Shown: one piece after another, positions 658-57,861 of the stretch
Layout of the letters: every line of letters starts with the position of its first letter
Numbering within the stretch: position 1 is the first letter of the stretch
Assembly (NCBI GenBank): GCA_000091205.1
Contig: AP006501.2
From: Cyanidioschyzon merolae
Taxonomy: Eukaryota
Strand: one strand, 5' to 3'
Length of the DNA: 64,000 nt
Notes under the pieces: model-generated
The model's database searches: none
Seen by the model: the letters and a program-made list of their open reading frames with translations, nothing else
What the model was told of the DNA's origin: nothing
Position numbers and translations under genes: made by a program

Positions 658-1068
658 ATGCGTAGCTGGTTGTTCGCCAGCGCAGCCCCAGCGATGCACG
701 TATCAGTGGGGGCAATGCGTGCGCACAACCCCAATGCGTGTCTGCGTGCGCGCGCGGTGCTGTCCCAATGGGCGATGCGAGGCGTCGGCGCGCCGGCCGC
801 CACGAGGCCACGAGGCATCCAGAATGGTATTTGCGAGAACATGGACAAATGGGATTGCAGCGTCCCGTTCGCCCTGCGTCGTCACGCCCGGTCGCCGTGC
901 ATGTGCTCGTCTCCGGACGGGTTGATGTGCGGCCTGCGCGCTCCGAGCGCGAGTTCGATGGGCGATTCAGGATGCCTTGGGTATTTTTGTTCTATCCAGT
1001 GCAGCATGCAATGGAAAAGGTCGCGTCATTCGGGTGTCCAAGGTAAAGTTTTCGTCTTTTTCGATCTT

Positions 1069-2360: not shown

Positions 2361-2809
2361 GGTATCGGCTCGAGGCGGCAAGCGCATAGATCGCGCAAAG
2401 GTGCCGTCTGCACAATTGGAGGTTGCACAGCGGTGCTGGCGGCTAGAACAAATCGCAAGCAGGCACCAACTTCTAGGCAACCGGCGCTGAGCGCTAGCGC
2501 ACGCCAAAAACCCTGCGGTACTGGCGGCACATGACGGGCTGCAGCGCCTGCATCAGCTGCGGACCCGCACCTATGATGCTGTGGTTGTACAGTGCGCCCG
2601 GAGTGCACCTCTCCCATACCGTTTACTGAACAGCACCTCCCATATGAAAATCATACACGCGAAGAACTATGGTACATGGATAGCGGAGAATAGGCGATGC
2701 AGGAGACCACGGCACGCTGGCGTCATCGAAAAGTAGAGAATGCTGCGTCGCGATGGGTAACGCTGAAACCCTTCTTCGCTGATGCACGACGCGAAGCACC
2801 CGCCCTGAT

Positions 2810-4312
2810 TCACACGTCCAAAACATGAAGGTTACCGGTAACCACGCAGTTCTCGAGCCGAGACCCCGCCGGAATATCAATAGACGCTCCCGGCTGGGCG
2901 ACAATGATGACCGTACCGCTCAGTTTGCAGCGTTTGCCGAAGCGCACACTGCCACTGACAGTTAATGACTCTAATTCTAAAATATCCGGCATACTCTCGA
3001 AACGGCTACTAAAGTCGCTCACTTTTTTGAATTCTGGACCCAACCGAATGACTGGCGTGCCGAGTTCAGCCGGACGCTCCGGATTCATACTAACATACCC
3101 CGAGACGATATTATAGAGATTACTTTGAATCAAGAGCAGATCGGATGTTGTCTTGACGGGCAGGAAACGGCTCCGTGGAACGTTAATACCCATGACGCGC
3201 TGGAAATGGGTAATGGCAGCACCCATAGCCGTCTCGAGCTGCAGCACGGTTTCGCCTTTCACAGTCTTCGTGTTGGGGATAATATCCAGCTCCATGGAGC
3301 CAGGTCCTCTGTCCATGATTCGCTTGAGCGCCTTGAGTTGGATCCACAAACTATTGGTATTGAATACTCGGAATTTGGATATGTTCTGGAAATCTCCCAA
3401 GTGCTCCTTATCGACCTGCGCGACTTCTAGCAACCTCGGCTTGCCTTGGTACGTGATCAGCGTGCCTCCTTTCCGATCGGAGCGAGTTCTCGTTGCCATT
3501 TCGATTGTAAATTCAACCTGATGATCCGCGATTGCTTTGAGAATCCGCGTATCCAAGGACGCTCCAAGGTTGTCACTGTTACTCACGAATATCCATTCCT
3601 TGCCCTCGGCGAGCAGCCGATCCAGCATGCCCGATTGCAGAAGCGCATCATACATGTCGCCGTGACCCGGCGGGTACCAGTCCTCCTTGTCGTACACTTC
3701 AGAGTCGAGGCACAGGGGTCGCAGTGTGTCGCGCACCAGACGCGGATACCTAGACTGCTGAAACGTACGAATCGGAATGAGATCCTCGTACTTTCGAATG
3801 ACTTTCAGTGTATCCGCATCCGTGTTAAAACTATTCATTAGGAGAAGAGGCACCTTGATTTGATACCGCTTGTTGATGGACTCGATCTGCTTCACGATAA
3901 TGTCCAAAAACGTCTGTCCCGAGCGGATTTCGATCACGGACTTGGGGCCCGAGCACCCCATCGAGGTGCCGAGGCCTCCGTTCAGCTTCAGTACAGCGAC
4001 GCGGCTTAGAAGCGCTCGCGCCTCAGTTTCGTTCGGTTCGGGTAGTTCTGCGTAGGGTCGCAATAGCTCCGCCGATGGCGGCTGGATCTGGTCCCAATCC
4101 AGTGCCGCGGACGCACTGGAGCGCGTCTCCAGGTACCGACCCAACAGGTGCACAAAACCCTGTTGTTCTGCTTCGCTCATGCGTGCACGTACGTCAGTCG
4201 CCCTTTCATTGATTTGACGTATTTCCTCCAACAGTGCCTTCTCCAGAGACTTGTCTGTGAGGTGAGCGAAGTTCGCAAAAGAGGCATCGTGGCTGGTTCG
4301 CACCAAAGGCAT
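2810..4312 (-). CDS. UTP--glucose-1-phosphate uridylyltransferase (UDP-glucose pyrophosphorylase), 500 aa, single exon
   Basis: UGPase signature LKLNGGLGTSMGCSGPKSVIEIR and overall UGP-family collinearity over 500 aa. Confidence 0.85.
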   Translation of the reverse strand: MPLVRTSHDASFANFAHLTDKSLEKALLEEIRQINERATDVRARMSEAEQQGFVHLLGRYLETRSSASAALDWDQIQPPSAELLRPYAELPEPNETEARALLSRVAVLKLNGGLGTSMGCSGPKSVIEIRSGQTFLDIIVKQIESINKRYQIKVPLLLMNSFNTDADTLKVIRKYEDLIPIRTFQQSRYPRLVRDTLRPLCLDSEVYDKEDWYPPGHGDMYDALLQSGMLDRLLAEGKEWIFVSNSDNLGASLDTRILKAIADHQVEFTIEMATRTRSDRKGGTLITYQGKPRLLEVAQVDKEHLGDFQNISKFRVFNTNSLWIQLKALKRIMDRGPGSMELDIIPNTKTVKGETVLQLETAMGAAITHFQRVMGINVPRSRFLPVKTTSDLLLIQSNLYNIVSGYVSMNPERPAELGTPVIRLGPEFKKVSDFSSRFESMPDILELESLTVSGSVRFGKRCKLSGTVIIVAQPGASIDIPAGSRLENCVVTGNLHVLDV

Positions 4313-5634: not shown

Positions 5635-8600
5635 CTACGGGTCAAAGCCCAGGGCCTTGCGATATGCAGCCTCCTCGCGCCAGGTGAGGCGATCACGGAC
5701 CCAGTCGCCGCTGGAAGTGCGACGTCGATATCTCGGACGATTTGTCCCGCCGCCGAAGATATCGACCAGGTCGCAGGTATGGACGCGGGGAAATATGGTG
5801 TCTGGATCGACACGCGTTTGCTCGATTAATGCTCCATAGAGACGATGGCTCCGCGCCCATTCCGGTATGAGGTGCCGCTTAGCAGCGGGCACCGCAGCGC
5901 TCTCATCATCCGAGGCATCCGCCGAGTGGTGTCGCTCCGGAGTCAGCGGGTACTCCGCGGGAGCCTCGTCCGCGGCGGCAGCAGCAGCAGCAGCAGCAGC
6001 GGCAGCAGCTATCTGGGACGCTGGCTTTGTCCCATGCGACTTGAGCAGACCACTCGCTACGACCTGTTGTTGACGGAGCGGCGCAAGACGTGCCTGCTGG
6101 CGCTCGGTCTCCAGTGCGAGCCTTCTTTGATGCTCCAAAATGCGGCGTCGTTTCTCCTCGCGCCGTTGGCGGTATGCGTCCTGGACATCGAGGGGCGCCT
6201 CTGCATCCACGGGAGCTTGCCTTGGAGATGGATTCCCGTTGAGATCGACCAGGGGCTTCACTGCTGTGCGCGAAGGCGTCGCTGAGACAGGCGTAAGCGA
6301 CGTCGTGTCCACTGCTGTGGGTTGTTTCAGCGAAGCTGGGACGCAGTTCGGCGAGGCGCGCTGATCCATCCGACTCTTGAGCGTCTCGGGGCTGGGCGAA
6401 GCCCCGCGCACGCGCTTGCTCGATTGAGGCATTGTGGCTATGACGATCCGGTAACGAGACGGGCTGCTCCTTGCGTGCCCCAGCGTTGCCCATGCTTTGT
6501 TTGGTGACGGTTTCAGCACCGAATTTGTGCCGGTGGCTTGCAGCTCAGTGGCGTTCTGCAGCGGTTCTACTTGCATGCGCGCTGGTGAATGCGTCTGACG
6601 AGTGGAAACCGCTCCAGCGGAAATTGTAGCGGATGCGGTGGCGACGGCAGCGTTCCCCGGCAGACCATAGCCGCTGACATCCTGCTCCAGCGGAGGCGAT
6701 GGCGCAGCTCTCGACGTGGAGCGCCCGGTGCGATGGCGATCCTCGCACATTTCGTGCTGGACCGTCGAGCTTCGGTCGCCGGCAGCTCCCACAGCTTCGA
6801 TCCGACTGGGACTGGGGCACACCGGGAGCGCTCCAGCACGCATCGCGCGCAACCGCTCGATGCGCGTGCGCAGGGCCTCGGTTCTCGAGAGCCTGCTAGA
6901 AACACCGCCAGGAGCACCGCCAGGTCCCGGCTGGCGCTCACCACCAGGCGCAGCTGCAGCGTAGAGGGTATGGTGCGGCATGGGCGTTCCACTGGCGTGC
7001 GCTGGTGGCATGATCGTTTCGTCTACCGCTGCGGGAGCGCGCTTCGGGTCTGCAAGTCGCAGTGCGTGAGCGTCGTAGCCGTCGTATGCGACGCTGGTTG
7101 ACGCTGCCGGCGCCCTACGAACGGAAAGCAGCATCTCCGTCGCAGTTTGCGAGCGCTCGAGCGCATGGAACGACCCGTCTATCGCGTTCGTGGCGTCAGA
7201 TGGACTGCGCGATCGTGAGCGTCTCGCTTGCTGGTCACTTGCACCAGCTGCACTCAATGGCGAGCGAGGACGGCTGGGCCTCGCTAGTTTGGCGTTGGCA
7301 GTCGTCGCCTGGCCGGAATCCGGTACCAGCGACGCTGCCGCTGCCGCTGCCGCTGCTGATGGCGCTAGTTCGACCGGCGCCGCGCAGCTCGGCATCGCTA
7401 CCGAACTGGAGTCGCTCGCCACAGCGGGTTGCTGTGCCGCGTCCGCCGCGCAGTCCGGGTTCCCGACTCGCCCATTCGCTGCATCCTGGCCACATGACCC
7501 AGCTCGGATCGCATCCGCGTTTTCCGCAAGTGCGCCGTTGTCGTCGCTCGGTACTGTGGCCAATTTTGGGTCGCATTCGAGCGTCTGTTCCAGTTGGAAA
7601 ATCTGGCCTTCAATGTCGGTCGCATTCACGAACGAGCCGGGGCCGGATGCGGTTGGCGAAGCGCAGCGCGCGCGATAAACCTGTTCTGGGCTCGCAACCG
7701 AGTCGATTGGCGCCATCGCGAACGCGGCAACTGGCCGATGCGCTGGCGCAGGTGACGCGGACCCACGGCCCGGGTGCATTGTATGCCGCCCGGGGCTCAG
7801 TGAAGCCGAACGCTCGCGTGTACCCTTCATCTGCGCTTGAGATGCCGTCACGCCCTCCATTGTGTAGGCGCTGTTCTCGGGCAGAGCGCTGGACGTGCCC
7901 AGCTGGCGCATCGCCGCCGACGCTTGCGCATCAACAGCCGAAGCTTCCGTGGTAGCATTGCCACTGGCACTCAGGGCATGCTGCGCTCGCGCGAAGGTTG
8001 GCAGCGGCAATGGCGTTATCGGCGCGACAGCTCCTCGATGCACAGACGATCGGCGTCGTGCCCGAACCGTCTCTGTGGCATTCTCCGTGGAAAACGATTC
8101 AGCATGGTCGCTCGGGTGGCATTCGGCGGCGAAGTCGCTGCAGGTGACGCTGCCGGCACGCTGGGCGCCATTCGTCAAGGCCATCATTGTGCGGATCGCC
8201 TCTGGCGCCGCAACCTTTTGGGGTTCGTTGTATTCGAGCTGTGCGCTGTTCCGCTCTGGATCCACTAACGACCGCCGCATTGGCGGTGATTGCGAAAGCA
8301 TTGCGGAGCTACGTCGATTCGGTGCTGTTCGATGCACCGGAGACGATAGATGCGATGCCGGGGTACGCAGTGAGCGCTCCTTGGTCTGGGAGCACGCTGC
8401 CGGTGTTCGGGGCAGGGCCTCATCGCCCGCTTCGGCAGCGTTCATCCGCGGCGAATGCCCTGAAGCGTTATCAAAAGCTGGGCGCGTTGCGAGAGACCCT
8501 GGAGTATGCCACTCGTTGCCAGCAGGGGCCTGTAGCGAAGCCTGAACACCCCTGATGGTCTCTGTGGCAACGTCTTGGCCGGGATTTGTCACAGTGCAAT

Positions 8601-11600
8601 GTGTGCGACTGTTCGCATCGATAGTGACTGATGCGCGCGACATCATCTGGCTCGGCGACATGGTGCCTGACCCTGAGCGATGCTTACGAATCGAGTCAGA
8701 TGGCACATTAGCCGCAAAGCGCGTCTCCTGCAAAGACGCTGCACGGCGTCTGCTGGACATCGATGGCGATACACCGGTTTTTGGTGTCGGCGCTGGCGAC
8801 GCCCTTATCGACATTCGTTGCCATCGCGCTCTATCTGCGATATTCTCGGTGACGTTTTGGAGGCTGGACCGCGGAGCTGCACCACCCCCAGACGCTGCTC
8901 TGGATTCGGCTGGGATTTCGCAACTGCTCGCCACGGTCCCGGTGACTTGCTCGAGCGATGACCTCACTCCTGGACACCGTTCACCCACATCTGGTGCCAT
9001 TCCATCGACGTCGTTCTCGGATGGGGCGTGTTGCGGACTAAAGCGCAGCGCGGCAGGCAACTGACCCTGAATGCACCAAGAGAGAGGGTTCAGTGGTGAA
9101 TCAGCAGCGCTGGGCGATGGCGACTGCGCTGCTGCAGGCTGTTCAGCGGCAGGTGCGGGCATCGATTCGCAGCGAAACGCAGATGACGGATCAGTAGCCA
9201 GAGGTATGCTCGCGGCCTCCGTGCGCATAGCTGTGTCCTCGTCCGCGATGCCATTATCATGCGGTTGTCGCGGTGATGGCGGCGAGACGTCCCCGAGCAC
9301 CAACGAGCGCGTCGGAAGATGCTTGGGGCAGGGACTGCATGCCTCGACTGCTGCCCCGCTGGATGGAATATCGCCGCGCGGCGGCGTCCATTGCCTGTGA
9401 TGCATATCGCTTGGCGGCGTTTCCGACACTGCTGCAGCTTTTTGCGATACGAACGATGATCCGTGAACAGCTAGCCTGGCGCTTTCGACCCGAGGCGTCG
9501 TTGGCGTCGTACTGGGCCCAGGCAGGCGCAGCGCATCGGCCGCTGCGGCTCCAGAGGGATCCACAGATGTCGATTCCGCGGGCGCGAAATTTTCGCCTTG
9601 CGGGTCGCTCAGGGCCGCGGGCGAAGCTGCCAATGCTGCAGCTGGACAAGCACTGGATGTCCCTGAGCCATGTACGGGGTCTGAAGCGGCCTCCGCAGGG
9701 TCCTGCTTCACCAAAGCCGCCGCCGCCGCCGCCGCCGCCAAATCGATACGGGCTTGGCTCGTCGACGGTCGACGTTCTGGATGCGACTCTGAATGTGCAG
9801 CAGATGTCGAGGCCGGGTGATGCACATCGTACCGCGGCGAAGGCAGCGCTTTGCTGGCACTCCCTGCAGCCGATGCCGAATCGTCGGCTTGCGCGGACGT
9901 CCAGTTTGAATGAATCTCTCCAGCAGTGGACGGCTCTATGGGCACCGGCTCCTGCTCGGTTGCTGCTTGCTTCTGATGTATTCCAGCTGACGCATGGGGC
10001 GCATCCGCCGCTCCGTTTCGTGTTCGAATGATGCACGGGCTCGTGAACGAAACGTTGTGCGCATCGCGAATTTGCACTCGAGTCTGAAGCCCTGGCAGGG
10101 CTCCATTGAGACTTTCCGATATTGCCACCGGAAGCGAGGGACGCGATCGATTGCATAGGCGGGCGCTTTTTTCAGGCAGCGAAGCGCTTCGCCTGTTATT
10201 CGCGCCTCGGCCCTGATCCGGTGATATGGTGTCTGGAGCCCTCGATGTTGCGCGCCGAGCACCATGCATCGACTGCTGCCGCTCCGCTCGTTTCGACGAC
10301 GCTGTTCTTGGCGATGCCATGCCTCTGGATACCGGCGGTAGGGACGTGTTCTGCAGAGCGTCTTGGGGACGGCGCCGACGCCGTCGTGTTCGGGTCGGCA
10401 TTCGCTCGGGACTAGCGGGCGCTAGGCGCTTGATTACCGACGACTCCCGCGCTGCTTTGTCCGCACCAGAGCGTGACCTGGACGGCGGCGCCTGCCGTTG
10501 ACGGCGTCTCGGCATTGGCGCTCGCGGTGCTCGTCGCGTTTGCTCTGGAGTGCTCTGGCCCAGCGATATGTTCGTCATGGGCGTCATTCTGCTCGTGTTG
10601 GGTTGGTCGACAGCTGCGCTCAGGTTAGGAGCGCTTGGCGCGCACTTTTCGCAGAACCAATCCTTCTGGGGCACCTGGTCCAGCGGCGGCCTACAGCAGT
10701 ACGTGTGGAAACAGTCATCGCATCGATCACATAGAAGCATCAGATGGGGGTCCTCCATGCCCTTGCATCGTCGGCAGTACGTCTCGTCCTTGTGCGGGGT
10801 TCGATTCTCCGCCTTGGCCCGTGAGAACGGCGACAGTAGCTCTAGGGCCAATGCCCGCGCACGATCTGCAGTGCTTTGCTGATGCCGTCGAGCAGTCGCA
10901 CGGGGTGCTCGTGTGGCGAGGTCGTTCGCGTGCGTCTCAGACGATGGCGCTACTCGAGCCAGACCAGAATCTCGCCGTTTTTTCGGTCGCAACGGTACAG
11001 CGGATGCACCTGAGTCTGCCTCTGCTCCATCAGCGGCACATGTGGAAGAGGGTCGTGAGAAGCGCGCGCTTCCAACGCGCTGCACGGGCGACGCGCGGGC
11101 ACCATGTAAGGCCGGTGCTGCTGCATTTAGCACCGCATCGCGCTTAGGTGAAACGGGTTGCGCTTCCTGCTCAGATGCGTGCTGTGGCGGAGCACGCTTT
11201 CGTTGCACGCGTGACCTTTTGGTGGCTTGCGAGGTGCGACCGGCTGTCTCTCTCGTTGATCGCCCGCAGGCGATACTGAGCGCATCCGTTTCCGCTGGTG
11301 CTGCCCTTTCGGCTGCCTGTATCGAGGGTGACCGGTGAGAGCGGCGGTCTTGGCGCTGTGCGCGCTCTCTTATGCCTCGTCGCTGGTTCGTTTGACGCTG
11401 CCCTGCGTTGGAGGCAGGCGATCCAAGCGGCGACTCTGGCGGTGCAGGTGTGCGCTGCTGTTCTCGGGTGCCAGCGTAACGCTCCGATGGAATGTTGGGG
11501 CGCTCGTCTTGCATGAGCTGTTGATCATTGTTCTCGTCGTGGAACGCGAACTGATCGGATTCTGCTGCAGCGGCACGTTCCAACGATGACGACGACGGCA

Positions 11601-12336
11601 GTGGCGACTGGGCGCCAGACCTGATCGGGTCTGGCTCTTTTCGTGGCGCGTTCAGTACGACCGGTATCTGGGAATTTTGTCTAGAGTCATTGGTTTTGCG
11701 CTCGTGTAGTGCAGTGAGACGACGGCGTCGGCGCGCGCGAGCGTCCAGCATCATGCTCTTTCGCGATGCCGCGGGCGGCCGCACAAGGCCTACGAGCGAA
11801 TGCCGCGGGTCCCAGGTCTTCCATCCCTGGCCGGGTGGCCTCGTGCCCGGTGCGACTGACTCGCACATGCTTGAGATGCTGTGGCTTTCAGCACGACGGA
11901 AGAGCGAGCCGTGTGAGCTGGTGTCTCGACAATCGTCGGACGGAGCAGCAATTGAGGGTGTTTCGCGACTTGGACCTCGACAGCCATCGGATGATTCACT
12001 TGCTGGCAAATGATATGACGCCGCTACCTTGAAGCGTTGCGGTTCTGCTGGCGATGCAGCGGCACTGGCGACGTTGTTCGTGTCGGGCATTGTGGTGTTC
12101 CCCAGCGAGTCAATGGCGTGATCAAGCGCGCTTCTTGCCGCCGCCGCCGCCGCCTCGTGACTGCTAGTCGGAATCTCTGGCAACCTTGTCGCACACGCGC
12201 GAATCGTCCGTTGGAACCGAACGATTTGTGCTTCATATTCGCCCAGTAGAACAGCCTGCTGTTGCTCTGCAATGTAGTGGAGCGCATGAATGGCGTCCAA
12301 AACTGTCCGCTTTCGAAAAGCGTCGCGCGTAGACAT
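5635..12336 (-). CDS. Very large (2233 aa) low-complexity protein with an internal PHD finger and a C-terminal coiled-coil plus INCENP IN-box (Aurora-B-binding); an INCENP-like chromosomal passenger protein
   Basis: PHD C4HC3 spacing is seen in CRRCKGMEDPHLMLLCDRCDDCFHTYCCRPPLDQVPQKDWFCEKC. A charged single-helix region (RQRREEKRRRILEHQRRLALETERQQARLAPLRQQQ) lies just upstream of the IN-box. The C-terminus LIPEWARSHRLYGALIEQTRVDPDTIFPRVHTCDLVDIFGGGTNRPRYRRRTSSGDW matches the IN-box pattern IP.WA...L..A...Q...D.D..F....L...F......RY..RTSS..W. Poly-Ala and poly-Gln tracts come from the (GCA)n run at 5974-6009. Confidence 0.65.
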   Translation of the reverse strand: MSTRDAFRKRTVLDAIHALHYIAEQQQAVLLGEYEAQIVRFQRTIRACATRLPEIPTSSHEAAAAAARSALDHAIDSLGNTTMPDTNNVASAAASPAEPQRFKVAASYHLPASESSDGCRGPSRETPSIAAPSDDCRDTSSHGSLFRRAESHSISSMCESVAPGTRPPGQGWKTWDPRHSLVGLVRPPAASRKSMMLDARARRRRRLTALHERKTNDSRQNSQIPVVLNAPRKEPDPIRSGAQSPLPSSSSLERAAAAESDQFAFHDENNDQQLMQDERPNIPSERYAGTREQQRTPAPPESPLGSPASNAGQRQTNQRRGIRERAQRQDRRSHRSPSIQAAERAAPAETDALSIACGRSTRETAGRTSQATKRSRVQRKRAPPQHASEQEAQPVSPKRDAVLNAAAPALHGARASPVQRVGSARFSRPSSTCAADGAEADSGASAVPLRPKKRRDSGLARVAPSSETHANDLATRAPRATARRHQQSTADRARALALELLSPFSRAKAENRTPHKDETYCRRCKGMEDPHLMLLCDRCDDCFHTYCCRPPLDQVPQKDWFCEKCAPSAPNLSAAVDQPNTSRMTPMTNISLGQSTPEQTRRAPRAPMPRRRQRQAPPSRSRSGADKAARESSVIKRLAPASPERMPTRTRRRRRRPQDALQNTSLPPVSRGMASPRTASSKRAERQQSMHGARRATSRAPDTISPDQGRGANNRRSASLPEKSARLCNRSRPSLPVAISESLNGALPGLQTRVQIRDAHNVSFTSPCIIRTRNGAADAPHASAGIHQKQAATEQEPVPIEPSTAGEIHSNWTSAQADDSASAAGSASKALPSPRYDVHHPASTSAAHSESHPERRPSTSQARIDLAAAAAAAALVKQDPAEAASDPVHGSGTSSACPAAALAASPAALSDPQGENFAPAESTSVDPSGAAAADALRLPGPSTTPTTPRVESARLAVHGSSFVSQKAAAVSETPPSDMHHRQWTPPRGDIPSSGAAVEACSPCPKHLPTRSLVLGDVSPPSPRQPHDNGIADEDTAMRTEAASIPLATDPSSAFRCESMPAPAAEQPAAAQSPSPSAADSPLNPLSWCIQGQLPAALRFSPQHAPSENDVDGMAPDVGERCPGVRSSLEQVTGTVASSCEIPAESRAASGGGAAPRSSLQNVTENIADRARWQRMSIRASPAPTPKTGVSPSMSSRRRAASLQETRFAANVPSDSIRKHRSGSGTMSPSQMMSRASVTIDANSRTHCTVTNPGQDVATETIRGVQASLQAPAGNEWHTPGSLATRPAFDNASGHSPRMNAAEAGDEALPRTPAACSQTKERSLRTPASHLSSPVHRTAPNRRSSAMLSQSPPMRRSLVDPERNSAQLEYNEPQKVAAPEAIRTMMALTNGAQRAGSVTCSDFAAECHPSDHAESFSTENATETVRARRRSSVHRGAVAPITPLPLPTFARAQHALSASGNATTEASAVDAQASAAMRQLGTSSALPENSAYTMEGVTASQAQMKGTRERSASLSPGRHTMHPGRGSASPAPAHRPVAAFAMAPIDSVASPEQVYRARCASPTASGPGSFVNATDIEGQIFQLEQTLECDPKLATVPSDDNGALAENADAIRAGSCGQDAANGRVGNPDCAADAAQQPAVASDSSSVAMPSCAAPVELAPSAAAAAAAASLVPDSGQATTANAKLARPSRPRSPLSAAGASDQQARRSRSRSPSDATNAIDGSFHALERSQTATEMLLSVRRAPAASTSVAYDGYDAHALRLADPKRAPAAVDETIMPPAHASGTPMPHHTLYAAAAPGGERQPGPGGAPGGVSSRLSRTEALRTRIERLRAMRAGALPVCPSPSRIEAVGAAGDRSSTVQHEMCEDRHRTGRSTSRAAPSPPLEQDVSGYGLPGNAAVATASATISAGAVSTRQTHSPARMQVEPLQNATELQATGTNSVLKPSPNKAWATLGHARSSPSRYRIVIATMPQSSKRVRGASPSPETLKSRMDQRASPNCVPASLKQPTAVDTTSLTPVSATPSRTAVKPLVDLNGNPSPRQAPVDAEAPLDVQDAYRQRREEKRRRILEHQRRLALETERQQARLAPLRQQQVVASGLLKSHGTKPASQIAAAAAAAAAAAAADEAPAEYPLTPERHHSADASDDESAAVPAAKRHLIPEWARSHRLYGALIEQTRVDPDTIFPRVHTCDLVDIFGGGTNRPRYRRRTSSGDWVRDRLTWREEAAYRKALGFDP

Positions 12337-13102
12337 TGGCGCTCACAACTCGAAAGCCCACTAGCGTCCTCTTGTACCGCGTAAAAGGTATGTTTCTCCT
12401 GGTCGAAAGCCGGTTGCTTGGACAAGTTCGAAGCACGTCACTCCGAGGCGGCGCCACGGTACTGCTGCCAAGTCCCGATAGCACAGCGAGGTCGAGCGGT
12501 GCTGAAACGACACGCAGCGGCGACGTGCAAACGCGCGGCCTTACACAACTGTCTTGTTCGCTCCCGTGCCCTGATGACTCGGCACACAAAGCTGCCTCTG
12601 ATGTCTGCTGCCCGTTCACGTTACGCTCGTGCTCGGCGAGCAGCGCGATCCCAGGTCGCAGCGTCGAACAGTCCCGGAGCGCAGCGATACGCCCACACGT
12701 GGCGTTGGAAGCGCCGGCTCTCCTGGAGTTTAGCAGGCGGTAAAACAGGGCGATAACGCCCCGGATCAAAGAAGGGCTCTGTCTGGTGCAGATAAACTCG
12801 ACAGGCCCGTTCAGTGGGGGGAGAAGAGCTCGACGCACGCGCTCGATGCCGTCCGAGCGCGGAACGTGGCTCGCCTTCTCGGTGCAGGGACACACTGGGT
12901 GCCGCAGCCGGCAGCGCGAGGCGGCCGTCTCCCACGATGATGCGATCGCGTCGGGAATTCAAATCGACGGATGCGAGGTTCAGGAGAGGGTCTGGTTTAT
13001 TCATTTATGTTCGCTTATGTCTAGTATGCTCCCAGTGATGCGAGGCAGCCGTGGTGGTACGCGTTCAGCGTGGCTGCGTGATCCACGGAGCGCGGGCCGA
13101 TA

Positions 13103-13672
13103 TTTCTGATGACGAAACGATAACCATTGACCATGGATCCCAGAATTCGGGATGGATGGATGTATAATGGCTCTTGAAAAAGTGTCCATGATGAACCACC
13201 TACCTTCAAGTTCCAATAGCTATACTTCCTCTCGGATTTACTGGTCGTTTCGTATGTTCTATCGAGCGCCGAGTGCCTGCTGTGGGCACCCGCCGAAGCG
13301 CTTCCACCGCTGCAGCAGATGCTGCACGGCGACAGAACAGCTTTGCCATACCACTGAGAGCGTCGGCTCGAGACGTGGTTCATTCGATACGGGGCCGGAG
13401 TACATAGTAATTCTGGGAGCCTGCGACAGCGCGAACCGATCTACCAGGAGTCCACTGCGACCAGTGCGATGCCCAGATGCAGCTTTCCTGCGTCTAGTCC
13501 CAGAATGAACTGCTTTGCGAACGAGCTGCGCGGGTCTCTCCACAGCACCTGCCACTGGAGGGAGCATGAAGCACTCGTCTTGCAGACTCGTCCGGCTCGC
13601 GGACCTTCCGCTTAGGAGATTCACGTTCGGCAATGTAGAAAGCTTTCCATTCTTATAACGTTTATCGTAGCG
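13103..13672 (+). repeat. Copy X1 of a roughly 0.6-kb dispersed non-coding repeat family (the other copies are X2, X3 and X4)
   Basis: It aligns by eye with 39612-40206, 52028-52634 (reverse) and 57862-58190 at about 75-85% identity. The 5' end begins ttt(c/t)(c/t)gat(g/a)ac...ccatggatcccag, and the 3' end is ...agctttccattcttataacgtttatcgtagcg. Spurious ORFs that share SRIYWSFRMF..PSACC (13152..13508 and 52378..52662) are what revealed the family. Confidence 0.7.
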
Positions 13673-14732
13673 CGACCCGATGTCGTTGGTGGTACTGGCG
13701 CTGCCAAGCCCCGGAGTCCCGACTGCTGCCCCGGTATTTTCGGGACGACGGGGATCGATATTCAAGGAGCATCTGCAGTGTGATCATGATTTTGAACAGC
13801 GAGCCTGGCAAGGCCGCTTTCGAAGTGCCCCCAGCCGCTGCACCGTGGCACGGCTCGCGAATCGGCCGCTCCAGACGTTGCCTCTGGAGGTTGCGTTGAA
13901 TAAAAAACCGCAGTTCCTGTCCAATATCCTGAGAAAATCAGGATTATCACGAATCGCATGTATGGTTGCGTACAGAGGCGCTTGACGCAGTGTTCGGCGA
14001 CTGCTCCTGCGTCGTCGTGGACCTAAGAAGCGACGTTCGCAGCGCCTACCGCCGCGACTAGTATGGATACGCATCCGGCAGAGCGATGAATCCCTCGTAT
14101 ACGGGTAATCGCCAGCCAGCGGCCGGGATCCAATCATTACGATGCTTTTGCAGTCGACTCCTGTGGGCGCTCCCAGGGTTCGCATGCACTGTGTATCGTG
14201 CACATGCCCCGGTGCTGATGAGCGCTGGAGATGCCAGCAACTGGCAGCGTCCATGCATGCAAGGCATTCTGATCAGATTCAAGTATTTTTGGAAGATGTG
14301 CGGTTGCGGAATCGAACGGGGGATCTGCAGGTGCGCGATCTTTATCGGCATCGAGGGAGGCATCTATCATGCAGCAGTAGCGCAGAGTTTCATGGATCAC
14401 CACCTAGGCTTCCACTCGAAAAACATAGTCCATTCATACAAGCTTGTAGGTGCCGAGCCGACGATGAGTGCGTATAAAGACGCCAGTAGCACCGTTCAGG
14501 ACACTGCACGGAAGCGGAAGGGTTTTGGCGTTCCCGCGCTGGTGCGTCATCTCAAAGAGATGCGCGGATCCTATGTTGTAAACGTGACTGTGCAAGTATC
14601 GCAGCAGTTTAGGCCAGCAAACGGAACGACACGCGCGACTTTCGAGCATTTACACCCATACCAGATAAGAATGGTATGGGTAGATTCAATTCACAAGGGC
14701 ATCTACGCTAGAGTCCGGTCTCCAAGCATTGT

Positions 14733-17536: not shown

Positions 17537-19002
17537 AGTGTACCAGCGCCTGCCGCTACGTCAGAGGCCTCCAGACGCGTTGACCCCTGGGCCGCGTGCT
17601 GCTGCGCAGCAGGTTGCGCAGGGGCGTGTGTCGCGATGTCACGGAAGCGATCCGAGGAGTCACATTCGCGTTGAATCTGGCTGTTGAGCGACGTTGTACA
17701 TAAGGGACACAGCGTCGTCCGCACGCAAGCAGGCGTATCGAGCGCAGCGGAATTAATTTTACGCCCCGATGGGCGTTCAGTGCCAGCTCTTTGAAGAACA
17801 CGGTATGAAACTGAACTTTTTTGTCCTGATCCTGGTGACAGTCCTCTGGTACACGATTCATCTGAAAAACGGTATCATCATGCACATTCTTGGTCGTGAT
17901 CCTGGGCGCAGTCGCCCGGTCTACGATCCTATTTGATACAGTGCTGCCAGCAGCGGTCTTTGGTCTGCCATCCGACTCGTCGAAACGCACGCCGGGCCGA
18001 CGTATCAAGATCGTCCGGTGATATCGCTGCTGGTGCAGTCATGGTGCATGCATCCGCGCGTACTGGTCGGCATAGGAGGTTCGGTCGCTGCGTCTCTGAC
18101 GTTTACGGACGAATATAGGTCAAGTGGTGATTCGAAGAATCTTCTGGCGGAAAACACGTGCCTTCAACGGGACGTCTCTCGATGTGGGTTACCTTTGTGC
18201 GAAGCTATTCGTATGGATGCTGTTCTTCGCCAATCCTTGTGCAAGGAATCTGCGCTTATCGTGCAACGATGCAAGGACGGTTCGCGACCTGTATGTGCGG
18301 ATTTCGTCCACAGACGCTTGCACGCTGAACCACATCAATGGAAACTGCGGTTGCGACAAATGTGCACCAACTGAGCCGCGTGGTGCTCATGGTCAGGCCC
18401 CTGGAACCCTGGACGATCAAGATGATCCTATTTGGTGACAGGTTGATATCCAGCGCATCTCTTTGCGCGAGAATGACTTGGTGGCACTTGCATGAGGCAC
18501 GCTAAACGTAATCGTTCGCGGGAATCCAGTCAGTTGGACGTGCTGAATTTCGAAGCAGGACACTATGCAAAACGAAGCAAGTTCAGGTGTTCGGTTGTAG
18601 ATCAGGACGACACACGAAACATGGGTGCTGCATCGCACACGTATCTACTCTGTGGCAGCCTTGGACAAGAGTCGCCATTGGTTTAGCGTGATTGCTAGAG
18701 AGCGCTTGGATTACCAGGATGCCGTAGCCGGCATTCGTTGCTCCATCGAAGGTACACGGCTGGATTTCGCCAAGGCATTTTGCGGAGGCTGCGCTCCCGG
18801 CTCTTGACCCGCGAGCAGCGAAATGAAACAGCGAAACCGGTGATAATGGCCTGTTTGAGACCTGTGTAACAGACGCTGCTGGGAGCAACGCGGCAAGGCG
18901 GCCTCCTGCAAAATTCAAGCACCGATTCTGGTTGTGCGTCGAAGAGCTGACGAAGAAGTTTCTATGTATTCTTTGCGCACATGAAGCATACGGCATCCAC
19001 AG

Positions 19003-19645
19003 GGAAGGAGACCAAGGCTCAGATACACGAAAAGCATCGCATAGTGTACCCATAATGCATACCGTTTAGAAAATAGAGGAGATCAAGGCTCAGGTGCACG
19101 AAAAGCATCGCATAGTGTACCCATAAAGCATACCGTATAGAAAATAGAGGAGATCAAGGCTCAGGTGCACGAAAAGCATTGCATAGTGTACCCATAAAGC
19201 ATACCGTATAGAAAATAGAGGAGACCAAGGCTCAGGTGCACGAAAAGCATTGCATAGTGTACCCATAAAGCATACCGTATAGAAAATAGAGGAGATCAAG
19301 GCTCAGGTGCACGAAAAGCATTGCATAGTGTACTCATAAAGCATACCGTTTAGAAAATAGAGGAGATCAAGGCTCAGGTGCACGAAAAGCATCGCATAGT
19401 GTACCCATAAAGCATACCGTATAGAAAATAGAGGAGACCAAGGCTCAGGTGCACGAAAAGCATCGCATAGTGTACCCATAAAGCATACCGTATAGAAAAT
19501 AGAGGAGATCAAGGCTCAGGTGCACGAAAAGCATCGCATAGTGTACCCATAAAGCATACCGTATAGAAAATAGAGGAGATCAAGGCTCAGGTGCACGAAA
19601 AGCATCGCATAGTGTACCCATAAAGCATACCGTTTAGAAAATAGA
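19003..19645. repeat. Tandem array of about 9 copies of a 71-bp unit (gatcaaggctcaggtgcacgaaaagcatcgcatagtgtacccataaagcataccgtatagaaaatagagga), located upstream of the ABC1 kinase gene
   Basis: The period of 71 is read directly from the sequence (gatcaaggc at 19081, 19152 and so on). Copies differ by single substitutions. ORFs 19090..19299 and 19303..19512 are periodic artefacts of this array. Confidence 0.85.
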
Positions 19646-19873
19646 GCATAGAGGCGATCGCGCTGCCTCCCGAATGGCAGCGTTACGCCCGGCGATGAGC
19701 CTCATGTTCTTATGAGTGCTGATCCAGGATTGCCGAGGAACCTCCTCCTGAGCCAACACCGGCGTTTGCACTACTTGCCCTTGTACGTCTGAAAACGGAT
19801 GGGCTGCTGAATTGCACATGAAGGTAGCATTTCTCAAAATCTGTAGGATAGCTAGGACGTTTGTGGCTGTTTT

Positions 19874-21778
19874 GTGGGCAACACTGCCTCGAACGCCTGC
19901 ATGACTGCAAGCTTACTCTCTCCGGGTATACGCAGGCTTGCGTACTTCGTTTCCGTCGGAGCGCCCTTGATTACTGGTTACTTGTGGGCAGACTCTCGGA
20001 AAAAGGCCTACGGCGAGGCGAGCGTGACAAGTCATCGGTTGGAACCGTCGTACGATACCTCTGTGTTCGGAGCGTATCGCAGGTTCGCGCGCTCTGCGAT
20101 AACGGCGGCAGCGATCGTTGCCGACTATAAGCTCACGCTGGCGCGACTGCCCCCGGAAAATGAACATGACGAATTTGCTGTAACGTTGCGCGGGGAGAAA
20201 CTGGAGGCGACGCATCGGCGTGCCGCTGCAAAGATTCTCGAGCTCTGCGAGCGCAACGGTGGCATCTACATCAAGCTGGGCCAACATCTCGCGCAGATGG
20301 ATTACCTGCTTCCTGACGCTTATTGTGAGGCGCTCAGGCCACTGCTGAACGCCTGTCCGATACAGGAGTTTGCCGTGGTTGAACGGACACTATGCGAGGA
20401 CCTGCAGGTGGAGCGCCTGTCGGAGGTGTTCTCGTTCATTGAACCTACACCCGTTGCTTCAGCGAGTCTTGCGCAGGTGCATCGCGCTCGCTTGCGCACC
20501 GATTACAGGGAGCAGACGCAGCGGATGCTCTCTCCAAGAGAGCGAGCCTGGCTCGAGGAGCAGGAGCGCCTCGCACCCGAGGGGCCACTCGTCGCCGTCA
20601 AGGTGCAACATCGCGGTCTAGCGGAAGCGCTCCAGGGCGATATCGCTACGGTGCAGTTTCTCGTAAGCGCAGCCGAGCGCCTTTTCCCGGGCAACTTTGA
20701 CATGCAGTGGCTGGTAAATGAGATTCGAGAGAATCTTCCAAAGGAGCTAGACTTTGAACACGAGCTTCAAAATGGGGAGCGCTGCCGCACATATCTCGCG
20801 AGCGGCTGTGGAGCCAAGGGCCAGCGTTGCGCTCGACCACGCCTGAACGTCCTTGTGCCAACGTTTTTGACGAGTTTGTCGACGCATCGAGTACTGACCA
20901 TGTCGTACGAGACGGGAGTCGTAGCCAACGATGTTGCGGGGATTCGGCATCTCGGCCTGCGACCGCGCGACGTCGCATCCATAATCGATGACGTGTTCAC
21001 AGACCAGATTTTTTGCTTCGGTTTCGTTCATAGCGATCCGCACCCGGGAAACATTCTAGTGCGACCGAGCCAGGAAGACGCTTCAAAACCGCTGGTGGTT
21101 CTGCTGGATCACGGCTTGTATCGCGAGCTGGACGATGCTTTCCGCTTAGCATACGCTGCGCTGTGGCAAGGCATCGTTGAGGGCGATGGCGCCAGCATTC
21201 GTCGGGAAGCCCTAAGGATGGGGGTGCCCCCAGAGGACGTCGAGCTGTTTACAGCCATGTTAACTATGCGTTCATGGCAAGATGTGGTGGACCAGACCGA
21301 ACAACGAGGCGATCGCGGGCTACGTCTCTCCAATGAGCGGACGTCTGCGAACAAGCGGCGCGTGCAGGACTATGTGCGAGCCCATATCATGGCGATGAAT
21401 CGTCTGCTTGGTCGCATTCCAAGGCCCTTGCTGCTGTTACTAAAAACGAATGACTGTTTACGAGCGCTCGATCGTCGCCTCGGTGCGACGTCCCTCATGG
21501 TGGAGATGATTGCGCGAAAGACGACCGCAATACTCGCGGAGCACCAGCACACACAGTGGATGGAGCCGTTGCACGCGCAGCGGCACCAAGGGCTTGTCCG
21601 CGGCCCCATGTATTCGTTCTGGGAGCGAATACGACTATCGTGGCGCAGGGTACGTCTGGAGCTGCGTCTACTCATGTTTCGCTTGCTGGTGTGGTGGCAC
21701 CAATTGCGCAGGTCAGGAGATGCGCTTCTGCAGCGCTTCCAGGCCACGTTCCGCTCAAAAAGCCCGGATATACGCTGA
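19874..21778 (+). CDS. ABC1/ADCK (UbiB-family) atypical kinase, 634 aa
   Basis: Motifs PVASASLAQVHRA, VAVKVQHRGL, DFEHELQNGE, HSDPHPGNILV and DHGLY are characteristic of ABC1/aarF-domain kinases. Confidence 0.85.
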   Translation: MGNTASNACMTASLLSPGIRRLAYFVSVGAPLITGYLWADSRKKAYGEASVTSHRLEPSYDTSVFGAYRRFARSAITAAAIVADYKLTLARLPPENEHDEFAVTLRGEKLEATHRRAAAKILELCERNGGIYIKLGQHLAQMDYLLPDAYCEALRPLLNACPIQEFAVVERTLCEDLQVERLSEVFSFIEPTPVASASLAQVHRARLRTDYREQTQRMLSPRERAWLEEQERLAPEGPLVAVKVQHRGLAEALQGDIATVQFLVSAAERLFPGNFDMQWLVNEIRENLPKELDFEHELQNGERCRTYLASGCGAKGQRCARPRLNVLVPTFLTSLSTHRVLTMSYETGVVANDVAGIRHLGLRPRDVASIIDDVFTDQIFCFGFVHSDPHPGNILVRPSQEDASKPLVVLLDHGLYRELDDAFRLAYAALWQGIVEGDGASIRREALRMGVPPEDVELFTAMLTMRSWQDVVDQTEQRGDRGLRLSNERTSANKRRVQDYVRAHIMAMNRLLGRIPRPLLLLLKTNDCLRALDRRLGATSLMVEMIARKTTAILAEHQHTQWMEPLHAQRHQGLVRGPMYSFWERIRLSWRRVRLELRLLMFRLLVWWHQLRRSGDALLQRFQATFRSKSPDIR

Positions 21779-21859: not shown

Positions 21860-23281
21860 TCAAGGTGTCATCGTACGCTCAATGGTTACGGGTGATCGTA
21901 TCAATCGAACACCGAGCGTTGCGAACACAATTGCGAAACCGAAACGGAGCACCGACTCATCGACGAGCATGGCAGCTCGACTGCCGATTGCCGCACCGGT
22001 CAGCGTGCCGAGGATGACACCCGGCAGGTGGAGGAAACTCACCTGACCTCGTCGGGCGTAACCAATCCCAGCAGCAGCAGCCGGGAACACCATCGCAAAC
22101 ATGGACGTTCCGATGATCGTGCGCACGCCGTGCTTCTCTGGGTGCGCAGCTGCAGGAGCGGAGGGTACGGCGGCATCGTTACGGTCGCTTCTAGCAACCC
22201 GTTCTCTGTCCCTGTCTCGTGATGCGTACAAAAGCGCTAGTGACGGGGTGTATAGCGTGCCACCGGACACTCCGAGAAGGCCAGAGAGAAACCCGACACA
22301 GGTTCCAGTCCAGAGCAGCGCCTGGTCAACGTTTGTCGTGATAATTGCCAGCAGGCTCTGTGTCTCTTGATCAGCACGCGACCACGCACGCTGACTCGCG
22401 GGCGATCGAGAGCCTGACACTGCTGTGTGCCCTGCAGGGGCCGCATCAGACGCAGCGCAGTTCGTGGATGTATTCGAGGTACCAGTGAAGTTCGCGCCAG
22501 CAATGGGGTCTGTGGGTGCCACTGCGGAAAGCAGACGATCTCGCAACGGCACCAACGGTGCAAGCAGGATCAGTAAAATACCGAGTCCTCGCCGCAAAAG
22601 ACTCGCGTTTACTCGCTGACCAACGGCGACACCGATCGGCGCCATGATTATACTGCACACCATGAGCTGCAGCGCAGCAGGCAGGTCGACACAGCCCGCT
22701 GCCGCATAGTTGTACGCACTAGACGTTGCTGTTCCGCAGGATGCAAGCAGTGCCGTGCCCTGTGCAACTCGCTGTGGAAGATTGACGTACCGCACCAAAG
22801 CCGGAATCATGAAGATCGCGCCACCGGCACCGGCACAGGCGCCCCCGAAGCCTGCAGCGAAACCGATGGGAAACGCCGGCACCAGGTTGCGCCACCACTG
22901 CGGACGTCGCGGTGGCACTGCAGTGGTGCCAACAGCCGATGGACTCTTCGTTGCACGTGGACTGCTACCACTACTGCTGCTGATACTGCTATTAGGGCGC
23001 TTCAAACACGAACCAGAAGCCCTTGCACGGTACTCACAAAGCGTGCCTGCACCGAGTCTGGCAGCTAGAGCGTTCGACGCCGTAGCCGCGCTTCCGGAAC
23101 CTCGAAACAAACTGTGGAGAAAGCACTGCCCTGTGCGGACAGCGCAATTCCCAAGAGGATGCCTTATTACGTGCGCAAGGCAACCCGACGGCATCGAGGA
23201 ACCTAGGAACGTGGCGAGTATGCAGAGGATGCCTTCCCAGAGGCCGTGCGCATCCAGAATTTGCGGCTGCGCAATGCGCAT
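21860..23281 (-). CDS. TauE/SafE (TSUP) family membrane permease-like protein, 473 aa
   Basis: There are multiple hydrophobic helices with Gly-rich motifs (GFAAGFGGACAGAGGAIFMIPAL; LSGLLGVSGGTLYTPSLALL) typical of TSUP/TauE permeases. The N-terminal region is low complexity. Confidence 0.5.
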   Translation of the reverse strand: MRIAQPQILDAHGLWEGILCILATFLGSSMPSGCLAHVIRHPLGNCAVRTGQCFLHSLFRGSGSAATASNALAARLGAGTLCEYRARASGSCLKRPNSSISSSSGSSPRATKSPSAVGTTAVPPRRPQWWRNLVPAFPIGFAAGFGGACAGAGGAIFMIPALVRYVNLPQRVAQGTALLASCGTATSSAYNYAAAGCVDLPAALQLMVCSIIMAPIGVAVGQRVNASLLRRGLGILLILLAPLVPLRDRLLSAVAPTDPIAGANFTGTSNTSTNCAASDAAPAGHTAVSGSRSPASQRAWSRADQETQSLLAIITTNVDQALLWTGTCVGFLSGLLGVSGGTLYTPSLALLYASRDRDRERVARSDRNDAAVPSAPAAAHPEKHGVRTIIGTSMFAMVFPAAAAGIGYARRGQVSFLHLPGVILGTLTGAAIGSRAAMLVDESVLRFGFAIVFATLGVRLIRSPVTIERTMTP

Positions 23282-23307
23282 TGCGGCATCGCGATACGCG
23301 CATGCGG

Positions 23308-24300
23308 ATCGACTGATCTGGAATGCTAGTGACCTGGTATTTTATCGATTAATTGATTGATTGATCAGGTACTAGATAAACTGATGAATGGATACATGGA
23401 TCAGGTATTCGATCGATTGCTAATGTATTCGATGATTCGATTGATTGATCATGTACTAGATAAACTGATGAGTGGATACATGGATCAGGGATTCGATCGA
23501 TTGATCCAGAATGCTAGTGACCTGGTATTTTATCGATTGATTGATTGATTGATCAGGTACTAGATAAACTGATGAATGGATACATGGATCAGGTATTCGA
23601 TCGATTGCTAATGTATTCGATGATTCGATTGATTGATCATGTACTAGATAAACTGATGAGTGGATACATGGATCAGGGATTCGATCGATTGATCCAGAAT
23701 GCTAGTGACCTGGTATTTTATCGATTGATTGATTGATTGATCATGTACTAGATAAACTGATGAATGGATACATGGATCAGGAATTCGATCGATTGCTAAT
23801 GTATTCGATGATTCGATTGATTGATCATGCACTAGATAAACTGATGAATGGATACATGGATCAGGGATTCGATCGACTGATCCAGAATGCTAGTGACCTG
23901 GTATTTTATCGATTGATTGATTGATTGATCATGTACTAGATAAACTGATGAATGGATACATGGATCGGGGATTCGATCGACTGATCCAGAATGCTAGTGA
24001 CCTGGTATTTTATCGATTGATTGATTGATTCATCATGTACTAGATAAACTGATGAATGGATACATGGATCGGGGATTCGATCGGTTGATCTGGAATGCTA
24101 GTGACCTGGTATTTTATCGATTGATTGATTGATTCATCATGTACTAGATAAACTGATGAATGGATACATGGATCGGGGATTCGATCGGTTGCTAATGTAT
24201 TCGATGATTCGATTGATTGATCATGTACTAGATAAACTGATGAATGGATACATGGATCGGGGATTCGATCGACTGATAAACGATTCGGCTGATCGATTCT
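23308..24300. repeat. Tandem array of roughly 1 kb: about 5 copies of a 188-bp unit, each unit built from two related 94-bp sub-repeats, plus (TTGA)n. It sits in the divergent intergenic region between the TauE-like and MFS genes
   Basis: In-frame periodic ORFs 23357..23548, 23545..23736 and 23733..23924 start exactly 188 bp apart and have identical translations. The sub-units are tgatca[gt]gtactagataaactgatga[ag]tggatacatggatcagg.... Confidence 0.85.
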
Positions 24301-39579: not shown

Positions 39580-39611
39580 CCCGGGTGCCGTGCGACGCCC
39601 ACGAAGTGATC

Positions 39612-40206: not shown

Positions 40207-40228
40207 GGGGAAATAAATTGGTATTGGA

Positions 40229-41983: not shown

Positions 41984-42292
41984 CTCCGCTATCAATATAA
42001 AGAGATGTGCGGTGATGGAAACAAGACCTCCGGCGTTGACACGAAGGAGTTTTGTGGGACAACCTCTCAAAGTGGAACTATATGAGAAAAAATTGAAGCC
42101 AATTGTAGGTAGCCAATCCAAAAAAGCGGGGAGGCGTCTGCACCTCAGTTGGAGACGTTTTATCTGAAGCGCGTTTGCCGCCACTACCGCATACCGCTGC
42201 GGCCAGTGTTTTTCTTTTGAGAGACGTTTGTTTTCAGGGGTGCTGTCCCTAGCATTCCGTTTCGGGAGCCGTTCGTAAGATAGGTACGTTCT

Positions 42293-52634: not shown

Positions 52635-52732
52635 GGCGACCTCCTGGTCGCCACCAATACATTCAGAGCGTTCTCGTGGACTACACTTTACAGTGGACTC
52701 AGCGTTTCTATAAACACCAGGCTTGATCCGAT

Positions 52733-57824: not shown

Positions 57825-57861
57825 ATCTCAGGCGCTTCAGCCGCGATGATGATTGTCTTCT

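Follow-up and report, generated by a model that had tools for sequence, protein, structure and literature searches.

Two repeat families catalogued in the alga Cyanidioschyzon merolae are the closest described relatives of the elements reported here (Bao and Jurka, 2013, Mob DNA 4:12, PMC3627910). CMe-1A, with a 3169-bp consensus and about 150 copies that are ~80% identical to the ~3-kb consensus, encodes Fanzor1 and over its 5' 635 bp shares 95% identity with the entire TE-N2_CMe (~70 copies); no inverted repeats were found in CMe-1A, its target duplications were not determinable, and both families were left unclassified. The genome study of Nozaki (2007, PMC1955436) described a 3.2-kb interspersed element with 253 transcribed copies, a truncated open reading frame (ORF) related to WSV486 and a share of ~5% of the genome, alongside 26 retrotransposons that lack long terminal repeats (non-LTR), three of them with an intact reverse transcriptase, no LTR elements and eight relics resembling bacterial transposases. 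CMe-1A is this 3.2-kb element with the WSV486-like ORF. A statistical association of Fanzor1c with long interspersed elements (LINEs) has also been reported (Jiang, 2023). Here we analyse a stretch of 64,000 nucleotides of contig AP006501.2 (GCA_000091205.1), referred to as the window, which belongs to chromosome 19 of C. merolae 10D and holds four dispersed copies of a repeat that we call X, one of them adjoining an ORF. By its alignments X is the catalogued repeat TE-N2_CMe, and positions 39610-42235 are a decayed copy of the Fanzor1 element CMe-1A. We assign a probability of roughly 70% to the joint reading in which these identities hold, X is a LINE-dependent retroposon, and CMe-1A is made up of the retroposon tail and a Fanzor unit. 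The repeat family itself is already known; new are the homology to a LINE tail, the correspondence of the A-runs, the nested truncation and a candidate 12-nt duplication around one copy.

The copies are named X1 (at 13103), X2 (39610), X3 (51978-52633) and X4 (57856). They were located with a profile built from X1-X3, with which a four-way alignment and self-BLAST agree, and the CMe-1A consensus from the supplement of Bao and Jurka (2013) was aligned to the window by blastn. In the following lines the first strand refers to the proposed RNA intermediate; X1, X2 and X4 lie on the plus strand and X3 on the minus strand when read as in Repbase.

13103-13669, minus (plus in Repbase orientation): X1, solo copy of TE-N2_CMe type; consensus 2-582 at 78%; profile E 6e-189; match to a LINE 3' untranslated region (3'UTR), E 8e-29
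13108-13670: blastn segment of X1, consensus 2-582, 78%
13103-13106: short T-run of X1, TTTC, corresponding to the A-tail
39610-40264, minus: X2, X module within the CMe-1A copy; covers consensus 1 to ~640; profile E 4e-199; unit boundary placed from sequence
39617-40310: blastn segment of X2, consensus 1-687, 78%
39610-39616: T-run of X2, TCTTTTT
51978-52633, plus (minus in Repbase orientation): X3, solo full-length copy of TE-N2_CMe type; consensus 18-644 at 80%; profile E 4e-204
52607-51975: blastn segment of X3, consensus 18-644, 80%
52626-52633: T-run of X3
57856-58126, minus: X4, truncated copy, a 254-nt fragment; consensus 1-254 at 78%
57866-58126: blastn segment of X4, consensus 1-254, 78%
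57856-57865: T-run of X4, TCTTCTTTTC

With profile E-values of 1e-189 to 1e-204 for X1-X3 and 3e-41 for X4, and with a 24-nt degenerate block of X that matches exactly these four sites in the window (chance expectation 0), the copies stand essentially where a previous sequence-only reading of this DNA had placed them. Its estimate of 75-85% identity was too high: self-BLAST gives 67-74% between pairs of copies, and 78-80% is reached only against the published CMe-1A consensus. The 3' limits that it proposed fit X1, which ends at ...ATCGTA (13669), whereas the homology of X2 and X3 continues for another ~55-60 bp, to ~40264 and 51978, with a T-rich run at the end. The copy that it called "X4" and set 23 bp upstream of the ORF start is in fact the second of its list (39612-40206), which adjoins the ORF at 40229; since the homology of X2 reaches ~40264, this ORF begins inside the repeat and its TTG start at 40229 is an artefact. 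It was right to call X non-coding and its ends asymmetric. No stop-free frame in the first 905 bp of the consensus exceeds 118 codons, and neither strand has a long ORF; the tRNA search found no tRNA-derived head in X, Rfam gave no match at E ≤ 1 in X2 or X3, and neither scan matched X to a known type of RNA. No terminal inverted repeats were found in X and its far ends are variable as well, which sets it apart from miniature inverted-repeat transposable elements. The end point of X4 is not private to it, as two other unique loci also stop at consensus 254-256.

Set against the published families, the window copies are members that differ in nothing essential: they come from the same species, align at 78-88% along the entire 3169-bp consensus, are likewise without inverted repeats and share the architecture, in which the 635-bp module occurs alone (~70 copies) or as the first part of a Fanzor1 element (~150). 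The CMe-1A copy of the window departs from the published description in a private 645-bp deletion, in a right end placed 9 nt further and in the T-run being counted as part of the element. A very weak, X-like fifth fragment lies at 14357-14534 (profile E 5e-5, profile positions 85-258) and recurs at the same place in two metagenome loci (L056, L060); its BLAST comparisons with the consensus and with the LINE tail are not significant.

We compared X with further loci, obtained from a metagenome scan with an X block (80 loci) and from six regions around Fanzor homologues, which together yield 36 unique X loci (numbered with the prefix L). Some of this material carries LINE copies with a reverse transcriptase domain, RVT_1 (L081, L035, L002/L005); within the window no LINE reverse transcriptase sequence was found. 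The LINE ORF is followed by a 3'UTR of ~390 nt, to which the reverse complement of X aligns at 78-79% over ~200 nt (E 8e-42 and 3e-41; L081, L035), and two further colinear blocks and the terminal GTAAACGTTTTGTCA..(A)6 align too. The LINE thus ends in ...GTAAACGTTTTGTCAATGG(A)6 where X ends in ...GTAAACGTTTTGTCATCG(A)n. Every X copy of the window matches the LINE tail by itself, with E-values from 1e-10 to 8e-29. A T-run of 3-12 nt lies just outside CGATGACAAAACGTTT, the conserved end of X, in 21 of 23 unique copies, and LINE copies end in A5-A8. At one locus (L040, 12287-13384) a LINE with a large internal deletion retains ~640 nt of 5' leader and a 300-nt tail, and non-autonomous deletion derivatives of LINEs therefore exist in this species.

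The flanks of X1 carry a candidate target-site duplication, both copies of which abut the element:

13090-13101: left copy, GCGCGGGCCGAT, 10/12 identical to the right copy
13670-13681: right copy, GCGCGACCCGAT, abutting the element end

This 12-nt candidate encloses the T-run together with the truncated far end. A 13-nt repeat (11/13) in the same position encloses the T-run at L009, and plausible cases are seen at L062 and L052. Junction-abutting matches of 10/12 occur in 2 of 22 copies, as compared with 0.4% of mismatched control pairs of flanks. The far ends of X fall at a few recurrent consensus positions among the unique loci, namely 254-256, 267-270, 534, 581-582, 628-644 or 3169.

These comparisons demonstrate in part, and for the rest lead us to infer, that X is a non-autonomous retroposon dependent on the resident non-LTR (LINE) retrotransposon of the alga. 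It appears to run opposite to the orientation assumed before: the former "5' end", a T-run followed by CGATGACAAAACGTTT..., would be the 3' end of an RNA, ...AAACGTTTTGTCATCG plus poly(A). The T-run would be the counterpart of the LINE poly(A), and the last ~300 nt of X, homologous to the LINE 3'UTR, would lead to the same terminal motif and then the A-run. The LINE reverse transcriptase would recognise the X tail and copy the RNA into a nicked target by target-primed reverse transcription, which would explain why inverted repeats are missing, why the T-run varies, why copies are truncated as a nested set at the far end (254, 270, 582 and ~640 nt) and why some of them, X1 included, have 12-13-nt candidate duplications. 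A transcript taking this route should be polyadenylated and end in ...GTTTTGTCATCG on the strand antisense to Fanzor.

Among known elements, X resembles short interspersed elements (SINEs) with LINE-derived tails and LINEs with internal deletions, such as HAL1, in its LINE 3'UTR-like tail with terminal motif and A-run, and it shares with LINE-dependent retroposons the truncation at the other end and, in some copies, candidate duplications of variable length. The likeness has two limits: X lacks a tRNA, 5S or 7SL head, and its long form contains an antisense protein gene. As no such head is present, X is SINE-like in mechanism only. The fallback of the sequence-only reading, a SINE-like independent repeat with an A-tail, comes closer to the truth for X itself, although X has no such head and its pairing with the ORF recurs and is not accidental. 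Its favoured comparison with the ends of IS200/IS605, IS110 or Helitron elements is not the one that fits best, given the variable T-run and the homology to a LINE 3'UTR and poly(A) at the supposed 5' end.

A candidate hairpin plus T-run target upstream of X was considered and dropped: the flanks resemble GC hairpins and fold better than 45-mers drawn at random from genomic sequence (p = 0.001), but their mean z is 0.0 against their own dinucleotide shuffles, so that the signal is a composition effect. Two local features next to X copies are recorded here for completeness. A (GCGT)n microsatellite, GTGCGTGCGTGCGTGC..., lies at ~57790-57830, just upstream of X4. The hairpin GGCGACCAGGAGGTCGCC adjoins the T-run of X3; at this site (52630-52677) Rfam gives a sub-threshold match for the histone 3' stem-loop, with 16 bits where the gathering score is 34 (E 0.23), which is probably due to chance.

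Of the 36 unique X loci, 13 have the Fanzor ORF behind X and in the same orientation; a further 9 hold a solo full-length X, and the remainder are shorter fragments. The question of whether the same ORF follows other copies of X, put forward earlier as a check, is thus answered in the affirmative. Where there is no internal deletion (11 loci), ~990-1075 nt separate the beginning of X from that of the ORF. This recurrence, which Bao and Jurka (2013) reported as well, supports the view that X is a conserved end module in a longer repeat with an ORF and that the copies without an ORF are related to it. To this extent the earlier proposal of a conserved element end with ORF-less derivatives was sound; the autonomy that went with it was not. 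Solo and composite copies of X show no diagnostic columns and star-like distances, so amplification of a unit and its repeated formation are not separable this way. When the far end of solo X was compared with the right end of CMe-1A, as expected of two-ended deletion derivatives, only a weak T-rich resemblance was seen, which was not significant. Several metagenome X loci match the window's own copies at 97% identity or above (L007-L086; JGI Ga0078972, Ga0080006, Ga0123519, Ga0207433 and others). The species itself therefore occurs in these samples, and a very close relative of C. merolae 10D is abundant there.

Downstream of X2 lies the second part of the CMe-1A copy, and a remnant of another copy follows:

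40265-42235, plus: Fanzor unit of the CMe-1A copy; left terminus (AT)CAGTGCGGTCGAC..., right end ...GAGAGACGTTTGTTTTC
40314-41177: CMe-1A segment, consensus 1333-2196, 83%
41176-42226: CMe-1A segment, consensus 2120-3169, 88%
40314-42167, plus: Fanzor1 pseudogene, from translation, alignment to intact homologues, tblastn and Foldseek of the family model
41100-41253, plus: tandem repeat inside the ORF, two copies of 77 nt; consensus 2120-2196, seen as overlapping blast segments
42156-42165, plus: ACGTTTTATC, which represents the 10-nt motif ACGTTTTGTC in this copy and is closely followed by a GC hairpin at 42177-42205
45143-45567, plus: second, heavily deleted CMe-1A remnant; 45143-45188 = consensus 916-960 (85%), 45363-45567 = consensus 2890-3092 (68%)

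The remnant at 45143-45567 combines a short piece from the ORF start with the Fanzor C-terminal region (tblastn 45314-45499), 3 kb downstream of the first copy. In the first copy, an internal deletion of 645 bp at 40310/40314 removes consensus 688-1332 and the pseudogene is without ~142 N-terminal codons. An in-frame TAG follows at 41366-41368, and a 1-nt frameshift at ~41975-41985 falls inside the NRD(F)NSAINI motif. The ORFs at 40229-41368 and 41387-41983 accordingly share a frame with one stop codon between them, and the frameshift near 41980 comes after. Judged from these lesions, the Fanzor1 copy of the window is dead. The tandem repeat is a variable feature of the family: units of 75-87 nt (consensus 2117-2197, ~26-29 aa) occur in 1-4 copies among the element copies (L081 4298-4528, L034, L004).

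Sequence-profile searches of Pfam and PDB with the ORF were empty, and the homology search gave 71 homologues, all metagenomic, the intact ones 580-750 aa long. We predicted the structure of one intact relative, P0063, with AlphaFold (predicted local distance difference test score, pLDDT, 75) and submitted the model to Foldseek. The best match is SpuFz1 of Spizellomyces punctatus (PDB 9CEU; E 5.6e-17, template-modelling (TM) scores 0.59/0.67), with 8GKH matched as well, followed by GtFz (Guillardia) and PpFz (Parasitella) and then by Cas12f; the Fanzor1 structures lie at E 1e-15 to 6e-17 and TM 0.5-0.7. The identification as Fanzor1 rests on these matches of the predicted structure, the sequence searches being silent. 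The RuvC motifs are recognisable in the window translation, NR(D)FN among them, with the frame broken. Nine aligned family members show an invariant triad, formed by the D in DPG, the E in DEFRT and the D in NRDFN. In the zinc-finger region the TS of the [TS][TS]-x-x-C4 motif is present (DEFRTSYTHHELGC...) and two conserved cysteines follow among the aligned members; the Pfam OrfB zinc-ribbon gave no match. SpuFz1 (8GKH/9CEU; E 6e-17, TM 0.6-0.7) shares with this family the RuvC D-E-D and a basic N-terminus, whereas sequence identity is 14-16%, the C. merolae proteins have no obvious four-cysteine zinc finger, and the SpuFz1 element, unlike the C. merolae family, has terminal inverted repeats and TA duplications. 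On the evidence of the model, the ORF is a Fanzor1 gene, coding for a eukaryotic TnpB-like RNA-guided RuvC nuclease and not for a transposase.

This identification bears on the proposal of an autonomous IS200/IS605-, IS110- or Helitron-like element that has X as its recognised end and the ORF as its transposase gene, and that mobilises X1, X3 and X4 as derivatives without an ORF. Such an element would account for the repeated joining of X to the same ORF, for the asymmetric ends without inverted repeats, and for an ORF of the TnpB lineage, which is resident in IS200/IS605 elements. We nevertheless consider it very improbable. A Fanzor1 nuclease is not a transposase, and TnpB is dispensable for transposition (PMC3627910); no gene for TnpA (Y1 HUH), a serine recombinase or a DEDD enzyme is present, the consensus having a single long ORF, that of Fanzor, and nothing else being found by Pfam; and the long element's right end is missing from solo X copies, which rules them out as two-ended derivatives.

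Given a guide-dependent nuclease, X could alternatively be an omega-RNA-like guide or scaffold RNA, or a promoter or 5'UTR for Fanzor, with the solo copies as stand-alone RNA genes. X does immediately precede the gene, it lacks coding capacity and its length is conserved. Known Fanzor and TnpB guides, however, originate at the gene's 3' end or at the element's right end (PMC10432273, PMC10530073). The RNA folding proposed earlier as a check turned out negative, in that X1 folds no better than shuffled sequences (z = -1.2), whereas the last 275 nt of the consensus fold slightly better than theirs (z = -2.5). X has no Rfam matches and is LINE-derived, and between it and the ORF lies a leader of 260 nt, which is part of the Fanzor unit and is found without X too. 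A role of X as RNA gene or promoter thus seems hardly credible, and by analogy the guide RNA would derive from the 3' end of the Fanzor gene itself, at consensus ~2950-3178 and the adjoining downstream flank, and not from X.

The Fanzor unit (consensus ~645-3178; window 40265-42235) is a discrete segment. It has a fixed left terminus, ATCGCGGTCGATACGCGCACC, and a right end that is conserved for 9 nt past the Repbase consensus, ...GAAAGGCGTTTGTTGTC. No poly(A) or A-run, as would be needed for a sense-strand retrocopy, was found at this right end. The left neighbour of the unit varies. In CMe-1A it is the far end of X, antiparallel; at L004 it is a LINE truncated at ~1.3 kb and at L002 the 5' end of a full-length LINE, both antiparallel; and in five diverged loci it is the poly(A) end of a LINE, parallel and with the same junction. 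Direct joining of a LINE 3' end with A5-A8 to the Fanzor left terminus in the same orientation is seen at L081 (2700-2760), L053, L012, L068, L040 and L030, in copies that are 77-94% alike. None of the models considered explains this parallel junction.

In the reading that we prefer, CMe-1A would be the same retroposon tail placed head-to-head with a discrete Fanzor transcription unit of 2.5 kb. An RNA antisense to Fanzor, starting at the reverse complement of ...CGTTTGTTGTC and ending in the X tail, would serve as the template for the whole of CMe-1A, and the two parts may have been joined by template switching of the reverse transcriptase or as a chimeric retrocopy. This composite origin by copying of antisense RNA is the weakest step of the scheme and one that we infer. 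A parallel is offered by U6-L1 and other template-switch chimeric retrocopies, in which, as in the Fanzor composites, the junction is constant at the end of one unit. The LINE-family side of the composites is variable and consists of X (640 nt), of a LINE cut off at 1.3 kb or of a full-length LINE. They differ from the U6-L1 chimeras in being head-to-head in most copies, an arrangement not made by simple template switching, and the parallel is an analogy only.

Several observations weigh against the retroposon interpretation. A target duplication is detectable in none of ten composite copies, and the pooled tests for target duplications over all copies are not significant (p = 0.1, p = 0.57). 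All composites reach the far end of Fanzor, with none truncated between 650 and 2900 nt, which is unusual though not unknown for LINE-mediated copying. The tRNA and Rfam scans give no recognisable RNA polymerase III head in X, which is thus not a classical SINE. The parallel junction between LINE poly(A) and Fanzor at five loci is not producible by the antisense-RNA route. Finally, the Fanzor unit carries near its right end the motif ACGTTTTGTC, which is inverse to the X terminus GACAAAACGT (4 of 2000 shuffles reach the score in a test on the consensus) and identical to the 3'-terminal motif of the LINE, and a 10-nt inverted repeat placed before the right-end hairpin fits a Helitron2-like DNA element as well.

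This last point leads to the main rival, according to which X and CMe-1A would be non-autonomous, rolling-circle Helitron2-like DNA elements inserted after TTTT and beginning at the fixed T-run end, with alternative 3' hairpins producing the nested ends and with the LINE similarity due to capture. The T-run directly before the conserved end in nearly all copies, the inverted repeat GACAAAACGT/ACGTTTTGTC just upstream of the GC hairpin and the composites that always keep both ends are all in keeping with it. There is also a precedent in the Fanzor1 elements CRe-1/2/3 of Chlamydomonas, which are non-autonomous Helitron2 elements that insert after TTTT, are truncated at one end and show variable 7-19-bp duplications on truncated copies only (PMC3627910). 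As in C. merolae, Fanzor1 there rides on a non-autonomous element with one end nearly always intact and the other truncated, and the TTTT beside the insertion and the restriction of variable duplications, candidates in C. merolae, to truncated copies are shared. In C. merolae, however, no Helitron partner is known, and the intact end is LINE-like and has its T/A-run within the candidate duplication. In both X1 and L009 the T-run is enclosed in this way, so that it would be part of the insert and not of the target. The spacing also departs from the Helitron2 definition, as the 5' repeat begins 4-5 nt from the end (0-2 in the definition) and the 3' repeat lies at 62-71 nt (20-30). Some 300 nt of X are colinear with the LINE 3'UTR, down to the same motif and poly(A). 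The genome paper counts only eight bacterial-like transposase relics (PMC1955436), and Bao and Jurka, who defined Helitron2 in the same paper, yet left this family unclassified (PMC3627910). On balance we regard a Helitron2-like origin as unlikely.

A broader suggestion, which we offer tentatively and would not rely on, is that Fanzor1 genes reached 150-250 copies, ~5% of a compact genome, by means of the LINE machinery, be it as an antisense-RNA retroposon or through repeated chimeric retrocopies, and that the LINE-terminal motif near the Fanzor 3' end also primes sense RNA. The repeat by itself, being the rediscovery of a catalogued family, carries little weight. Fanzor1 proteins, however, are a class of compact eukaryotic genome editors of practical interest, and C. 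merolae has hundreds of copies of a Fanzor1 element in a 16.5-Mb genome with almost no other transposons. The LINE-tail homology gives a testable class, that of LINE-dependent retroposons, to a family unclassified since 2013. If this assignment is true, CMe-1A and TE-N2_CMe gain a class, the spread of TnpB-type nucleases in eukaryotes has to be viewed differently, as it would not depend on DNA transposition or RNA-guided homing, and the family would provide the first worked example of reverse transcription propagating a TnpB-family gene.

The window as a whole is ~57% G+C, with long intronless ORFs on both strands and eukaryotic domains such as UDPGP, ABC1, ankyrin/RING, SGF29, TPS/TPP and DDAH. 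The minus-strand ORF at 2810-4312 codes for UDP-glucose pyrophosphorylase, and its product shows 100% identity with the protein of C. merolae 10D. Two stretches, 18000-20000 and 22000-24000, have low G+C (0.50-0.52) and a purine skew, a composition like that of the Fanzor island; the searches made gave no similarity to Fanzor, X or LINE reverse transcriptase in either. The ORF at 5635-12336 (minus strand) encodes 2233 aa of low-complexity, Ala/Ser/Pro/Arg-rich sequence with a PHD-type zinc finger and ends ~770 bp from X1.

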